From contig OY969622.1 in NCBI GenBank assembly GCA_963701665.1, positions 768,001 through 832,000 on the forward strand: 64,000 nucleotides of DNA, written 5' to 3'. The stretch's first letter is position 1, and every line of letters starts with the position of its first letter. The position numbers were made by a program. This DNA comes from Candidatus Babeliales bacterium (GTDB taxonomy: Bacteria > Babelota > Babeliae > Babelales > JANWKD01). This document shows positions 45,001 to 51,000 of this stretch, piece after piece.

Positions 45001-48000
45001 AAGGCAAGAAAAAGTTGAAAAATTGCCAGAATTCCAAGAAACAACTAACCAGATGCAACAAATACAAAAAGAATTGGGTTCAACGCCGAATTATACGATA
45101 ATATCTGAGCTTCAAGCTAAAGCTGAAGCAAAAGAAAGATTAGCCCAAGAACAGTTAAGGGCTGCTCTTGAAGCAAAAAGTGAATCAACATCCTATCCTG
45201 AGGCTGCAGAGTTATCAAAAAATAATAAATCAACGAAATCGGGAGTGCTCACGATCTTAGCGGATAAAAGGAAAAATTTAGAACTATTACGTGAAAAAAA
45301 AGGGGGATCATTAACTTCATTTTTGATGAGAAAACCCGAATCGCACGATAAAGAGGTCAGTGTAGTTTCACCGAATGTAGGTCAACATACATTTGATGCC
45401 TTTCCACCCAATCCACAAAAAAAAGTAAGGAAATTTCAAGTTACCCACGAACAATCACAAGGTAAGGCAGTTACTCTTGAACGAAAAGTACACCAAGGGG
45501 ATAAGAAAAAAGGACAGGAGAAAAACTCAAGTTCGGATGAGGAAAGCGCATAAAAAAAAGGAGAATAACTATAATCGTTCTCCTTTTAACAACGCTTACT
45601 TTTTATTTGCAGCATTAATTTTTTTTGCAAGACGACTTACTTTTCGTGAAGCCGATTTAGGATGCAGCGTATTTTTACCTTTAGCGCGTGCCAACTTTGA
45701 TTCAGCATCTCTAAGAAGTGATTGCAAGGTAGTGCTATCTTCTTTGCTTTCGAGAGCCACTAACACTTTTTTAACTGCTGTTTTGAGAGATGTTTTGCGA
45801 ATGAGATTTTTCTGGCGACGAGTAATATTTTTTCGTGCCTGTTTTTTTGCTGATTTTGTATTTGCCATTGTTTAGTGAACCCTATTTCTAAATTACTTTT
45901 TCAACTTTGCCCGCTTTGACACATTTAGTACATACTGCGCCACGTTTAACATTTTTAGTACCAGTCATGGTGAATGAAATTTTATGAACGTTTGGGTAGG
46001 TCCAACGTTTAACTCTATTTCGAGCATGACTGACTAAGTTGCCAACATGAGGGCGTTTCGTACATACAACACAAATTCTTGACATGATGCCCAAAATCCT
46101 TTCATAGACTAATAAATCTTTATAAGTATAGCTTATATACCTATTTTTTCAACACACTAATTCCCGCATATAAGCTTTTAAGACAACTTAAAATCCTGAC
46201 GAGGTTCAATCCCAAGAAGGGCGTAAATTTCACTGGCAAATAATGTTTCTTTTTCATATAAAACGTTAGCCAACTTCTCGAGCTTATCACGATTGTTTTT
46301 CAAGAGTTGAATAACCTTTTGGTAAGAGCTTTCAAGCAACTTTTGTACCTCAGCATCGATACGTTCAGCTGTTTTTTGGGAGTATTGGTATTCACCCTGG
46401 TTTTGGGTATATACCACTGGCCCCATTTCCTCTGACATACCATAATGGCATACCATTTTACGCGCTATTTCAGTAGCTTTTTCAAAATCATTAGAAGCCC
46501 CGGTAGCAAGCACATTAAAGACTAATTCTTCAGCCGCTCGCCCGCCTAAGCATACCATGATTACCGCAAGCATTTCCTCCCTCGTTTGAGTATATTTGTC
46601 TTTCTCCGGTAGCGAGTGCGTTACTCCTAACGCTCGACCACGCGGAATAATAGTAACTTTATGGAGTGGGTCACTATGTTCTGGCATCAGTAATCTAACG
46701 AGCGCATGTCCTGATTCATGAAATGCGGTAATTTTTCGTTCTTCTGGGGAAAGTATAATAGTCTTAAGTGCTTTACCCAGCATCATTTTATCACTCGCTT
46801 CTTCAAAATCATGAACGGTAACAAATTCTTGTTGCGGATCTTTTGAAGCATTTAAAGCAGCTTCATTGACTAAATTAGCTAGATCAGCGCCCGAAAATCC
46901 TGGTGTTCCGCGAGCAATTTTGCTCAAGTCAACGGCAACATCTAATTTTACATTTTTAGCATGGAGCTTTAATATTTTTTCTCGACAGGTAATATCGGGA
47001 TAAGGAACTTCTACACGTCTATCAAATCTGCCCGGTCGTAAAAGTGCTTTATCGAGTGTTTCTGGTCTGTTTGTTGCAGCCATAACAATCACCGATGTTC
47101 CTTCAGTATCAAAGCCATCCATTTCTGTTAATAACTGATTGAGGGTTTGGTTACGTTCTTCATGGCCACCAATACCAGTCACCCGTTTAGCACCAACTGC
47201 ATCAATTTCATCAATGAATATGATACTTGGATTGTGCTTGCGCGCCTGGTTAAATAAATCACGCACGCGTGAAGCGCCAACACCAACATACATTTCAACA
47301 AATTCCGAAGCACTCACCGAAAAGAAAGGGCAATTTGCTTCGCCAGCAACTGCCTTTGCGAGCAATGTTTTACCATTACCCGGCTCACCGACAAGCAAAA
47401 TACCACGGGTGATTTTAGCACCAAGGCGCTTATAGCGTTCGGGATTCTTCAAAAAGTCGACGACATCTTTTAATTCTTCTTTTGCTTCTTCAACACCAGC
47501 TACATCAGCAAAGGTACATTTGACTTGAGATGGCATAAATAATTTTGCTTTTGCATTGCCTTTTGCTGCAGTACTAAGATTTGATGATTGATTTCTTTGC
47601 GATTCAAGCATAACTTTATGCGCTTCTTCAAGATCCTGCTGATCAACACATTCTTTATTTTTTTTAGAAGCATTAATTGCTGCTTTATTCATAAGATTTG
47701 CAAGATCAGCACCGCTAAAGCCTGCAGTTTCTTCAGCAACTTTTTTTAAGTTAACATCCGCACTCATCTTCAATGCTTGAGCGTTTATTGCTAAAATTTG
47801 TTCTCGGCTTGGCGTATCAGGAAATGAAACTTCAACACGGCGATCAAATCTTCCTGGTCGTAAAAGCGCTTTATCTAAAACATCAGGCATATTTGTTGCG
47901 GCAATAACAATGACTGAAGATCCAGCCGTATCAAAACCATCCATTTCAGTAAGTAATTGGTTGAGCGTTTGCTCACGTTCATCGTGACCCCCGCCAAAAC

Positions 48001-51000
48001 CACTCCCTCGTTGACGACCAATAGCATCTATTTCATCAATGAAAACAATACTTGGCGCGTGTTTACGAGCTTGTGCAAAAAGATCACGCACGCGTGCAGC
48101 ACCAACGCCAACAAAAACCTCGATAAAATCTGAACCAGTAATACTGAAAAACGGGCAATTTGCTTCGCCAGCGACTGCTTTTGCAAGTAAGGTTTTACCA
48201 TTCCCTGGCTCACCTATCAATAAAACACCGCGGGTAACTTTAGCCCCTAATCGCTTGTATTTTTCGGGATTTTTCAAGAAATCTACAACATCTTTAAGCT
48301 CTTCTTTTGCGTCGTGGGCACCTGCCACCGATTTAAAGGTAACTTTTATCGTAGAAGGCATAAACATTTTTGCTTTACTTTTGCCCATACTAAAGATATT
48401 ACTGCCGCCGCCTGAACCACGACTTTGTTTGAAGAAATACCAAAAACCAAGTGGCATAAGAAGGAAAGAAGCAATCAACAGTAAATGCCAGAAACTAAAC
48501 TGTGATGATAACGGCGCGACTGAGAATTGAACATTATGGTCACGCAAGAGATCAAGATTCTTTGGATTATCAGCAACGACGGTTTCAAAATGGGTATCAT
48601 CTTTCATGATGCCATACACATCTTGACCATTGATATGTACTGATTTTACTTCATTATTTTCAATTGCATCCAAATACTTTGAATAAGAAATATTTTTTAC
48701 TTGTCGCGTGTAATCAGTTAATTTAGTGAGTAACGCGATAGATATTACAAAGAAAAGGACTACAAAGACTAAGTGTTTAGGCCCGCGTGCAAAAGGATTA
48801 TTTTTTAATTTGTGTCTCATAATACACCCATTCTTACTTAAATTTTCACATAAAATTGGAGCATAAGCCATTTCGTGACAGAATCATGAAATGGATCTGA
48901 TAATATATTCTAATTGTACTATAAAATATAAAAAATTGAAAGTTCTGAGTAATTATATTATAAAAGATGCGTACTGTCGATCTTTTCTGAAGAAAAATTA
49001 GGCGAAAATACCTATATCAGCATACTTGCCGGACCAGGCAGGGTAACTACATTCTTCGCCCTCTTTTGTTAAGAAAAACCGTTCTTGGGTAATCATATTT
49101 TGGACAGCGATTCTGCTTTTCTGCCCTTCTTTATAGACATACGCAAGATAATTCCCACAGGGTGACCAGGTACATTCATCCTTACTCCCTCGGTCAAAAG
49201 TAAGCTGATAATGTTCATTGGTAGTCCTATTATACACGAAAATTTGCATATCGTTACCAATTAACTTTGAATAGGCCACTCTGCCTGTTTTATCACATAC
49301 TTGGGGCGAAGCACAATACCCCCCCTGGGTTATCCGCCTTATAAGGCCAGTATCATGGCTTAGAAGGTAAATTTGTGGGCTTTTGGTTTCATAATCAGAG
49401 CAAAAAATAATGTCCCCATTGGCACAAATGTTGGGGGAAGTATTATTTCCTTGGTTAAACGTTATACGCCGATTAACGCCCTTTCTTGATGTGGCATCTA
49501 TATAATAAAGGTATATCTGGCAACTATTTTTGTGCGAGGCACAATAGGCCACTTTTTGACCGTCGGGAGAAAAGTTGGCTAGCATAGTCAATCCATCACC
49601 ATTCGATATGATTTTCCTCTTGCCATCCAACTGAGCAGCCATCAATCTAATATTGGCTGGTGTTACTTCAGAATATAATACCGAAGGATTGTTATTATCT
49701 TTATTCCAACGGGGTCCTAATAGTTTACCACCCTGCACCAAGGTAACTGGTACATCATGAGCGCATGGATCTTGAATGACAATGTTCTTTAAACATTTTT
49801 TACCTTTTTTGACGGTAGTGCAATACGCAATCTTCGTTAAAAAAACACTTTCTTGTCCCGTTAATACCTGCCAGATTTGATCTGCAACACTATGAGCAGT
49901 TGCTTTTGCTGATTTTTGTAAACGCACTTTTTTGCCATCAAGCATGGTACCATTCTGAGTATCGTATATACGCCATTCAACAGTATCGCCACTATACGAA
50001 AGAAAAATTACTACCGAAAAGCCTTGGTCAAAAAAAGTTCGTATTGTTTTTTTTGTTGGTATTTTGGCTAGTACATCCCAATGAACATTAAACCCACTCA
50101 GTTTTTGCTCGGAACATGTTAAATCTTGTGCAACTTTTTTTACAATTGCGCCTAACTCTTGGGAAGTATCCAATGCGATAAGCAGCAATTTCATTTTTTC
50201 TTGCTGTTGACGTGTTGCATCAACTTTTATCGTTTGCTTTGGCATTTGCATAGCATGCACACACCAAATGCTTCCCGCCAACCAAATTAAATGCATCAAT
50301 TTCATAACGTTGCCCCTCGGATGATTAAAAAATTAATTCAATTTCGGTATGCCATAACGCGCGCGGGAAAGGATATTGAGCGACAAAATTCTTTACCATA
50401 ATATCAAGAGCGAGCGCGTGCGATGACTTCACAATGGTCACCGTACGCTCGGTTTCAGAACGTACGCATACTTTTACATGACATTGTTCAGTCGAGGGTA
50501 TATTCGTCGGACGTCGCCATGTTTTTGCGATGCCCGCTTTTATTTCGTTACACAAGGTAATTAATGCTAAATCATAATGACCAACTTGCTGTAGAGTTGT
50601 TGTCGTTGTAGCAGTATCGATCATCGCAGGCATTTTCTGCGAGGGTTGAGCTCGAACTACCGGTTCGATTTTTTTAGTTTTTTCTTTTTTAATGTCAGGT
50701 TTTTTTTCTACTTCTTTTTTTACCGATTTTTGTGGTTCGGGTATCGGTAATTTTTTGGCAGGTTCCTCTTTTTTCTTTTGAGGCTCTTGAATTTTCTTTG
50801 GCTGTAATTCTTTTGCTATCTGCGTCGTTGGCTGTGCACTCGGAACTTTTTTTTGTGCACGCGTTTCTTTTACTGCCTGCGCACGCGTTTGTGCGTTTGG
50901 CGTAATAGTTTTTATAAGCGGCACTAAGACAACCGTTGTACCATCAGAAATATCATGCAAGCGCACTATGTGGGCCAATCGCCACGATTGCACCATCATA

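Follow-up and report, generated by a model that had tools for sequence, protein, structure and literature searches.

A housekeeping FtsH with two tandem AAA modules in a Candidatus Babeliales bacterium

We find that a Candidatus Babeliales bacterium encodes an FtsH in which two complete AAA modules, here termed D1 and D2, stand in tandem between the periplasmic FtsH_ext domain and the M41 zinc metalloprotease, all within one intact reading frame. Coordinates refer to the window, that is, the whole 64,000-nucleotide stretch of DNA that was analysed. We consider it likely that the protein is the organism's housekeeping FtsH with its module doubled by an old duplication and with two working ATPases, and that it most probably forms a hexamer in which the D1 ring lies over the D2 ring and the D2 ring over M41.

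Results

Two complete AAA modules in one reading frame

Pfam matches AAA twice in the ftsH product (whole-protein E 1.2e-92; best stretch 491-624) and AAA_lid_3 twice, bearing out the tandem arrangement proposed in the first-pass annotation. As also claimed there, both modules keep Walker A, Walker B, pore loop and arginine finger. Each motif is found twice: at 220 and 495 for Walker A (GEPGNGKT), at 275 and 550 for Walker B, at 253 (FVG) and 528 (YVG) for the pore loop, and at 326 and 600 for the second region of homology, which keeps both its arginines. The key residues are Walker A K226, pore F253-V-G, Walker B D279/E280, sensor-1 N327 and Arg fingers R338/R341 in D1, and K501, Y528-V-G, D554/E555, N601 and R612/R615, respectively, in D2. 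The protease motif HESGH occupies residues 718-722 (window 46706-46720). The junction between the modules comprises the D1 tail, homologous to the opening residues of the M41 helix, then a poorly conserved linker, and finally a copy of the pre-AAA segment (KAKLFMPSQVK).

The length of 897 aa first given is likely an overestimate. Because homologues span 877-895 aa and M18 is almost invariant among them, translation probably starts at M18 (ATG at window 48820), yielding a protein of 880 aa.

Table 1. Features of the two-module ftsH locus, in window coordinates
Feature	Residues	Coordinates	Strand	Basis
ftsH open frame	897 aa from first ATG	46178..48871	-	single intact ORF
Transmembrane helix 1	~34-56	48704..48772	-	hydropathy scan; AlphaFold model helix 31-56
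FtsH_ext, periplasmic	36-119	48515..48766	-	Pfam PF06480, E 2.6e-10
Transmembrane helix 2	~127-150	48422..48493	-	hydropathy scan; AlphaFold model helix 127-150
D1 (AAA module 1 + lid)	175-425	47597..48349	-	Pfam, motifs, homologue conservation
D1-D2 junction	426-449	47525..47596	-	alignment; model pLDDT <50 at 431-440
D2 (AAA module 2 + lid)	450-700	46772..47524	-	Pfam, motifs, homologue conservation
M41 zinc metalloprotease domain	706-884	46220..46756	-	Pfam PF01434, E 3.1e-66
TolB-like beta-propeller gene		48998..50305	-	directly upstream of ftsH; PD40 repeat match
rpsT (ribosomal protein S20)		45596..45868	-	downstream of ftsH; Pfam PF01649

The gene occupies the housekeeping FtsH locus

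Sequence and position identify the gene as the organism's housekeeping FtsH, in agreement with the earlier reading. The product scores 1193.1 bits against the TIGR01241 equivalog (cut-off 600), in two stretches. Two transmembrane helices flanking the periplasmic FtsH_ext provide the membrane anchor (hydrophobic segments at about residues 34-50 and 125-148), and the M41 domain with its HExxH motif is C-terminal. No other gene of the genome has a full-length, strong M41 match; the second M41 match belongs to a degenerate FtsH-like paralogue with HQSGH. A canonical FtsH of 600-650 aa is absent from all 10 of the two-module genomes checked.

The neighbourhood is that of the one-module FtsH of relatives. 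The TolB-like gene lies upstream on the same strand in 18 of the 30 loci with two modules and 14 of the 20 with one, and rpsT lies downstream on the same strand at 25 of 30 and 19 of 20, respectively. This shared tolB-like/ftsH/rpsT locus makes the two-module gene orthologous to one-module FtsH. We therefore assign the protein to the FtsH family on the basis of equivalog score, membrane anchor, M41 domain with HExxH, and positional orthology. FtsH is described with one AAA module per protomer and this chain has two complete modules; it is therefore a variant of FtsH.

The duplication is old and internal

The duplicated unit extends from the segment past transmembrane helix 2 to the opening residues of the protease domain, and an in-frame tandem duplication of this stretch of ~275 residues appears to have doubled the whole ATPase module. 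The modules were first described as ~70% identical. They are indeed close duplicates, and our own alignment of residues 151-422 with 426-697 (score 936) has 183 of 273 columns identical, or 67%. The coding DNA of D1 and D2 is 68% identical overall and merely 50% identical at third codon positions, which makes the duplication old rather than an error of assembly. In fact, third-position identity is at most 70% in every 20-codon window and the longest common word is 20 nt, so that neither a recent repeat nor an artefact of assembly can account for the copies.

No RNA run was listed among the sequencing-run matches, every DNA run had a small share, and none of the short contig pieces from sequencing runs spans the D1-D2 junction. 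The possibility that the gene results from misassembly of a repeat, is a pseudogene, or is really a pair of genes misread as one is refuted, and we give it practically no weight: besides the third-position divergence of the copies and their lack of near-identical tracts, an equivalent open frame occurs in 29 other genomes, the architecture is common to all of the best 120 clusters listed, from several sources, and both halves are under purifying selection.

Three other origins or histories of the second module were rejected. Recent gene conversion between D1 and D2 left no detectable tracts. A foreign source of D2 is contradicted by the module tree (FastTree), in which a single clade (99) unites all D1, D2 and one-module sequences of Babeliales to the exclusion of 10 outgroup FtsH. 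Derivation from fused tandem ftsH pairs, such as those in three genomes (G008, G102, G027), fails because the short copies group with the FtsH of their own lineage.

Both modules are conserved but have specialised by position

Among 79 homologues (42-89% identical), no sequence departs, in D1 or in D2, from the Walker A K/T, the Walker B D/E, the sensor-1 N, the two Arg fingers or the V-G of the pore (79/79), and the pore aromatic is F or Y in 78 of 79 for each module. The protease residues H718, E719, H722 and D795, the last presumably the third zinc ligand of the M41 site, likewise do not vary in any of the 79. Pairwise identity averages 0.70 in D1 and 0.67 in D2, both above the 0.54 of M41. 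Across 11 pairs, where dS could be estimated, dN/dS is 0.017-0.124 for D1 and 0.012-0.124 for D2. These observations support two intact modules under purifying selection.

Comparison with one-module FtsH reveals how the copies differ. From Walker A to pore-2, identity to one-module FtsH is 0.86 and 0.80 in D1, and 0.80 and 0.69 in D2. The lid, on the other hand, is closer in D2 (0.60 vs 0.51 in D1), as is the M41 junction (0.49 vs 0.32). D1 has kept the canonical pore loops, while D2 has kept the canonical lid and protease link, a pattern in keeping with an arrangement that runs from the membrane through the D1 ring and the D2 ring to the protease. The sequences show that D1 and D2 have specialised by position, each copy retaining the surface that still faces its ancestral partner.

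Intact motifs are no proof of hydrolysis; of the two rings of p97 and NSF, one has a largely structural role. The rings of the Babeliales protein might similarly be stacked with only one doing mechanical work, the other keeping its motifs and serving mainly for assembly, spacing or regulation, as p97 D1 and NSF D2 do. D2 has a diverged, variable pore-2 loop where D1 has a canonical one, and may therefore grip the substrate in another way; the lid and tail of D1 have drifted, down to the 0.32 identity at the junction; and the third module of four-module Bacteroidales forms is without the pore and SRH patterns, so that degenerate tiers are evidently tolerated. These features would suit a single working ring. 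However, the invariance of the catalytic and pore V-G residues in both modules, the pore aromatic kept by nearly every homologue and the equally low dN/dS of D1 and D2 argue against it, and we regard it as unlikely, although not negligibly so.

A stacked double ring is the favoured assembly

We favour two working ATPase rings in a hexamer of four layers: the membrane and periplasmic part, the D1 ring, the D2 ring and the M41 protease ring. The D1 pore loops, beside the membrane, would take the first grip on the substrate, which would then be passed to the D2 pore loops and on into the protease chamber, with both modules hydrolysing ATP. That the protein forms hexamers, that its rings stack coaxially and that both hydrolyse ATP is inferred, as is any gain in unfolding power or processivity; extra pulling force from the second ring is speculation.

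The evidence for stacking is indirect and lies in the spacing of the modules and their specialisation by position. D1-D2 and Cdc48 D1-D2 form one collinear alignment (residues 177-681 to 211-714, 505 residues) with gaps of 1-3, and the best solved matches of D1-D2 searched alone are two-ring ATPases. The AlphaFold monomer has confident domains and an uncertain D1-D2 orientation (pTM 0.55; linker 431-440 with pLDDT <50). Modelled D1 superposes on single AAA modules at 1.4-1.9 Å, and modelled D2+M41 on AFG3L2 (6nyy_E) with Z 38.2 and 2.5 Å over 448 residues. Modelled D1-D2 superposes on p97 or NVL with Z ~28 but only at rmsd 7.8-10 Å over ~490 residues (~8-10 Å for p97 D1-D2), which, like the uncertain orientation, counts against the favoured assembly.

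With that orientation not fixed by the model, and with a linker of ~25 residues that could reach between neighbours, D1 and D2 might instead lie side by side in one planar ring, three protomers building a pseudo-hexamer with only three protease domains. This arrangement seems quite improbable to us. The model places D2+M41 as in canonical FtsH, where, as in solved FtsH hexamers, six M41 domains are required for a closed chamber. Divergence of the D1 tail and lid falls precisely where contact with M41 has been lost. Moreover, classical-clade tandem modules are stacked in every solved case that we met (Cdc48, p97, VAT, NVL), and four-module forms cannot tile a six-membered ring evenly.

Distribution and history in Babeliales

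The two-module form is present in 30 of 150 other Babeliales genomes; its occurrence in relatives, first reported for 6 of 24 Babelales genomes, is upheld, and the larger sample supersedes that frequency. At each of the 30 loci (L003-L032), one open frame encodes two Walker A motifs as well as HExxH; L032 is truncated at a contig edge. Stop codons previously noted within relatives' matches lie upstream of the start, leaving these frames open, and what had been taken for an odd 1194-aa frame (G008) reads as a pair of neighbouring ftsH frames, 617 and 536 aa long.

The duplication junction is common to the two-module forms, which favours a single origin. On the tree of a neighbouring gene, the module state changes at least four times; the switch could have proceeded by precise gain or loss of the 275-residue unit, or by allele replacement. 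As to the number of origins, the M41 tree is unresolved, raw module identities are flat, and we found no group-specific indels and only 3 signature residues. Neither D2 as a single clade (p-AU 0.103) nor a clade of the D1, D2 and single modules of one family, f8, is rejected (p-AU 0.53, with the constrained tree 2.8 lnL better than a quick free search).

No genomic correlate explaining a need for the second ring was found. The organism's own genome has no ClpP match, and across the order 1 of 151 genomes has a strong (partial) match and 22 have weak partial ones. Compensation for missing Clp was rejected, as ClpP absence does not track the two-module state. A link to the protease-dead FtsH-like paralogue was also rejected, long homologous frames being present in most families, one-module genomes included. 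We note that one-module relatives share their lifestyle with two-module ones, an observation that counts against the favoured explanation.

Multi-module FtsH in other lineages

FtsH proteins with the order (AAA)n then M41 (n = 2-4), many with FtsH_ext, also occur elsewhere, and the database names them no more than 'FtsH' or 'AAA family ATPase'. Three modules are found in Thermoleophilaceae MAGs, and three or four in gut Bacteroidales MAGs (Muribaculaceae, Sodaliphilus and others), where the multi-module gene is the sole M41 gene in 5 of 5 genomes tested. Their modules group together by protein or cluster, outside the Babeliales clade (FastTree), and their unit length is 253-274 residues vs 275 in the Babeliales form; these proteins arose by independent duplications. 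Clusters nearest to the two-module form in the ESM Atlas are ordinary ~600-aa FtsH, and the Atlas contains no model of it.

Discussion

Our literature searches turned up no description of an AAA-AAA-M41 architecture. To this extent the first-pass annotation's view of a new architecture of a universal protease stands; it is qualified by the FtsH proteins with two to four modules in other lineages. It is conceivable, though we would lean slightly against it, that FtsH with two to four stacked rings is a recurrent, undescribed class of membrane AAA protease in which ring number is tunable, the Babeliales having flipped between one and two at least four times. Evolution could then adjust grip, unfolding power or processivity through the number of rings.

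Natural FtsH proteins with two to four intact modules can readily be compared with close one-module orthologues that occupy the same locus, and the comparison could reveal what an extra ring does for grip, processivity and membrane-protein extraction in a fused AAA protease. Excerpts of the literature describe FtsH as the only membrane-anchored AAA+ protease family (PMC8943139) and the unfolding force of its single ring as debated (PMC9601784). Multi-module FtsH proteins are attractive cryo-EM targets, and the Babeliales gene is a clean case of an essential housekeeping enzyme in which a whole domain was duplicated in tandem and the two copies then specialised according to position.

Comparison with known systems

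The closest relatives are canonical FtsH and the m-AAA and i-AAA proteases (TIGR01241; MEROPS M41; 7vhp, 3kds, 6nyy, 6az0). The two-module protein shares with canonical FtsH the two transmembrane helices, FtsH_ext, classical-clade AAA motifs, the HExxH-bearing M41 domain and the locus, and its modelled D2+M41 superposes on canonical FtsH and AAA-protease structures at 2.5-5.2 Å. It differs in having two complete AAA modules per chain; FtsH is described with one in the relevant parts of PMC9601784, PMC8943139 and PMC7226402. The last, a review, draws the fused AAA proteases FtsH and Lon with a single AAA+ module in the portion concerned, and there keeps the protease separate in the two-module unfoldases ClpA/B/C and Cdc48.

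Type II classical AAA ATPases (Cdc48/p97/VAT, NVL, NSF) also carry two tandem classical-clade modules, each with its lid and at almost equal spacing. However, the ftsH product scores 450.1 bits against TIGR01243 (CDC48 family), below the cut-off of 802.65, and no CDC48_N domain was matched in it. Both of its modules derive from the lineage's own FtsH module, and it is membrane-anchored with its own protease fused.

Tandem FtsH-type AAA domains without an active protease have already been published, as excerpts of PMC9421593 and PMC7159879 indicate. The Ycf2/Orf2971-FtsHi chloroplast import motor is likewise built of FtsH-derived proteins: in the former source, Orf2971 of green algae has two AAA+ domains, and the Ycf2/Orf2971 proteins, whose M41 domain disappeared within the green lineage, act in heteromeric motors. 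Solved FtsHi complexes (8xku, 8xks) match modelled D2+M41 at Z 30-33; unlike in FtsHi/Ycf2, the HExxH of two-module FtsH is intact and invariant in the 79 homologues. The FtsH component of MoxR-vWA 'FtsH ternary' systems has two FtsH-type AAA+ copies per protein and belongs to a conflict-system operon, according to part of Kaur et al. 2020 (PMC7159879). In the Babeliales protein, by contrast, both copies are intact and the gene is a housekeeping ftsH at the conserved tolB-like/rpsT locus.

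An FtsH with two AAA modules in one open frame

The first-pass annotation had described an FtsH with two complete AAA+ modules in tandem, and the gene is real in this form: a single open frame in which the AAA domain with its lid and each of the motifs occur twice, an arrangement conserved among homologues. The periplasmic domain is flanked by two hydrophobic segments and is followed by the two modules, here termed D1 (residues 175-425) and D2 (residues 450-700). Walker A, Walker B and the pore-1 loop are each present twice, as is the second region of homology, both arginines included. 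Internally, residues 151-422 align with 426-697, with 183 of 273 columns identical (67%). M18 (ATG at 48820) is probably the true start, giving a product of 880 aa; homologues measure 877-895 aa and M18 is nearly invariant among them.

Features of the two-module ftsH gene and related genes (G000, this genome; C1, its contig; L073, a locus extract)
Feature	Location	Strand	Remarks
two-module ftsH	window 46178..48871	-	single open frame, 897 aa
FtsH_ext	residues 36-119		Pfam
AAA x2, AAA_lid_3 x2			Pfam
Peptidase_M41	residues 706-884		Pfam; HESGH at 718
second FtsH-like gene	G000:C1:680765-683524, outside window; L073:1763-4525	-	920 aa
stand-alone AAA ORFs	G000:C1 1013112, 1050237, 575969, 1035551, 580640, 482323; outside window		PF00004

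At the DNA level the two modules are 68% identical, with 50% identity at third codon positions. Third-position identity does not exceed 70% in any 20-codon window, and the longest word in common is 20 nt. This divergence, together with the lack of near-identical tracts, establishes that the duplication is old. The same scan of the two copies reveals no recent gene conversion. An assembly artefact was also considered and is ruled out by these third-position values.

The housekeeping FtsH at a conserved locus

The assignment of this gene as the housekeeping FtsH is supported by its score against the NCBIfam equivalog TIGR01241 (1193 bits for the whole protein, cut-off 600), by the HQSGH motif of the only other M41 gene, and by a locus identical to that of one-module orthologues (ordinary FtsH with a single AAA module). 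Against the CDC48 family model the protein scores below the cut-off. The genome is a single contig of 1.34 Mb, 93.6% complete, and holds just one further M41 match, the second FtsH-like gene. This gene has a long N-terminal part and a single AAA module that lacks an aromatic pore loop; HQSGH replaces HExxH, so that its protease looks dead. Homologous frames of ~750-1000 aa are found in most Babeliales families, in one- and two-module genomes alike.

In the window, ftsH lies between a TolB-like gene and rpsT. We compared relatives' loci with flanks of 1.5-2 kb (30 two-module, 20 one-module). On the same strand, rpsT lies downstream of ftsH in 25 of 30 two-module and 19 of 20 one-module loci, and a TolB-like gene lies upstream in 18 of 30 and 14 of 20, respectively. 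This common order identifies the two forms as positional orthologues. All ten two-module genomes searched for M41 lack a canonical FtsH of 600-650 aa; their further matches are a pair of short FtsH genes, 562 and 569 aa long, in one relative, G038, and weak ones in frames of 569-873 aa. We note that two plus-strand ORFs in the window, 43287-44324 and 44429-45553 (345 and 374 aa), have hydrophobic N-termini and are rich in lysine and glutamate; they have no Pfam match, and relatives' ftsH loci yielded no counterpart.

ATP-dependent proteolysis seems to rest on Lon and FtsH. ClpP (PF00574) has no match here; across the order (this genome and 150 relatives), 22 genomes give only weak partial matches and a single one, G149, a stronger but still partial match. 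At one of two lon loci, G000:C1:859466-860737 (outside the window), the AAA match falls in an 812-aa frame that contains one TAA, and the Lon_C match in a separate 349-aa frame; this may be a split or broken copy. Besides FtsH, Lon and a ClpB-like gene, the contig carries six stand-alone classical AAA ORFs of 345-568 aa.

Conservation of both modules

The two-module FtsH is well conserved. In a word-indexed protein search, the best 120 clusters were all 830-943 aa long and matched 90-98% of the query at 56-94% identity. Alignment of 79 two-module proteins, 42-89% identical to the query, shows the Walker A Lys/Thr, Walker B Asp/Glu, sensor-1 Asn, pore Val-Gly and both arginine fingers in all 79 sequences, in D1 and in D2; the zinc-site residues of M41 are invariant as well. 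The pore aromatic is Phe in 75, Tyr in 3 and Leu in 1 sequence in D1, and Tyr in 66, Phe in 12 and Leu in 1 in D2. Mean pairwise identity is 0.70 for D1, 0.67 for D2, 0.54 for M41 and 0.37 for the N-terminal part. Among 11 pairs, several with saturated dS, dN/dS where dS could be estimated was 0.017-0.124 for D1 and 0.012-0.124 for D2; the least saturated pair (L010/L011) gave 0.025, 0.060 and 0.030 for D1, D2 and M41.

A predicted two-tier motor

Queried alone, D1-D2 is matched by the two-ring ATPases Cdc48, p97 and VAT with higher scores than by FtsH, and it aligns collinearly with D1-D2 of yeast Cdc48 (177-681 to 211-714), where gaps, even in the linker, are only 1-3 residues long. An AlphaFold2 model built from the 79-sequence alignment has a mean pLDDT of 85.9 and a pTM of 0.55, with residues 431-440 below 50. 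Its D2 and M41 superimpose on substrate-bound AFG3L2 (6nyy_E; Z 38.2, 2.5 A, 448 residues) and on Thermotoga FtsH (3kds_F; Z 40.8, 5.2 A, 424 residues), and its D1 fits single AAA modules at 1.4-1.9 A, whereas D1-D2 together fit p97 or NVL at just 7.8-10 A over ~490 residues. The model thus predicts D1, D2 and the D2-M41 unit well, but not the D1-D2 orientation.

Comparison with 29 one-module Babeliales FtsH reveals how ancestral features are divided. D1 is nearer to them from Walker A to the pore-2/inter-subunit signalling region (identity 0.86 and 0.80, against 0.80 and 0.69 for D2), while D2 is nearer in the lid (0.60 against 0.51) and at the M41 junction (0.49 against 0.32). This pattern accounts for the earlier observation that one-module relatives match residues 1-348 plus 575-896. 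The same pattern is expected from a layered order (membrane, D1, D2, protease), in which each module would retain the surface facing the ancestral partner with which it is still in contact. The pattern would also be expected if the one-module genes were D1/D2 recombinants, and the layered order fits it without being proven by it.

We infer that the D1 and D2 rings are stacked, and consider it fairly probable that both also work, as a two-tier mechanism. Stacked rings of which one is mainly structural seem unlikely.

Origin and distribution of the two-module form

Of 150 other genomes surveyed in the phylum, which all belong to a single order, 30 carry a two-module ftsH, 28 of them full-length, one cut by a contig end (G112) and one split over two contig ends (G094). 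By family (our numbering), the form occurs in f1 (1/1), f2 (7/7), f9 (11/20), f8 (5/7), f4 (2/3), f3 (3/55) and f18 (1/1), and in none of the eleven other families of this survey. All seven genera with at least two two-module genomes are uniform for module state.

Against outgroups, all D1, D2 and one-module sequences of Babeliales fall into one clade (FastTree, support 99), and D2 therefore arose within the lineage's own FtsH. D1 modules are monophyletic in three builds (support 96, 95 and 96), and D2 monophyly is not rejected (p-AU 0.103). All main-group proteins have a common junction: the D1 tail retains ~11 residues that are homologous to the first part of the M41 helix, and a variable stretch lies between it and a copied pre-AAA segment. 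The Walker A-Walker A spacing is 275 in six family groups, and the lid end lies 33 residues from the MPS motif in four; in the independent Babeliales duplications of G040 and G111 the spacing is 264 and the junction different. Junction, spacing and clade data favour a single origin of the two-module form. We note that a family f8 clade of D1, D2 and one-module sequences is also not rejected (p-AU 0.53), that raw identities are flat, and that the search for signature residues yielded only three.

The tree of the TolB-like neighbour follows taxonomic families, with two- and one-module genomes interleaved. Its starred branches force at least four changes of module state, and constraining two-module genomes together is rejected (p-AU 0.0013). 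At this one locus, then, module state has switched repeatedly; possible routes are precise loss of a unit, replacement of the allele and repeated duplication.

Further ftsH copies were observed in the order. In the one-module genomes G008 (L056), G102 (L041+L060/L161) and G027 (L065+L064), a second, shorter ftsH (520-567 aa, without a membrane anchor) lies directly downstream at the TolB-like/ftsH/rpsT locus and clusters with its own lineage's FtsH. G040 (L055) has a two-module paralogue, an 889-aa frame without HExxH; in G111 (L053/L054), a 796-aa two-module form lacks the usual N-terminal part, and in a second form, of 893 aa, one Walker A is recognisable. At a locus separate from its two-module ftsH, G138 carries a 537-aa anchor-less ftsH (L059, G138:C1:299600-302200) whose AAA and M41 cluster with its own D2 and M41 (support 100 each), and which looks like a copy of the D2-M41 half.

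Multi-module FtsH beyond Babeliales and comparison with known systems

Long relatives were sought among 1.84 billion cluster representatives, and 20 were scanned with Pfam: in 17, a single M41 follows 2-4 AAA stretches, one is a fusion of two whole FtsH, and two lack M41. One three-module cluster contains proteins named from Thermoleophilaceae MAGs. In FastTree, modules of the same protein or cluster mostly group together, outside the Babeliales clade, which, with due caution over long branches, points to many independent duplications. A three-module query against species-representative genomes gave, among the best 14 loci, six three-module loci, seven four-module loci, whose third module lacks the pore and SRH patterns, and one shorter frame. 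These loci (L074-L087), from gut Bacteroidales MAGs labelled Muribaculaceae, Sodaliphilus, Prevotellaceae and Porphyromonadaceae, each consist of one open frame, 1185-1494 aa long, in which HExxH follows three or four AAA modules. In all five of these gut genomes tested, the multi-module gene is the sole M41 match.

A full-text literature search, with subscription journals and supplements outside its scope, turned up no description of an FtsH in which an active M41 follows two or more AAA modules. The two-module FtsH is a real, new form within a known enzyme family. AAA proteases are classed as one-module or two-module (PMC7226402), and canonical FtsH is described with four domains, one AAA module and a debated unfoldase strength (PMC9601784, PMC8943139). 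Closest among published proteins are Orf2971/Ycf2 of green algae, reported to have two AAA+ domains and no protease domain (PMC9421593), and the FtsH-type component of 'FtsH ternary' conflict systems, which carries two AAA+ domains, the N-terminal one described as inactive (PMC7159879).
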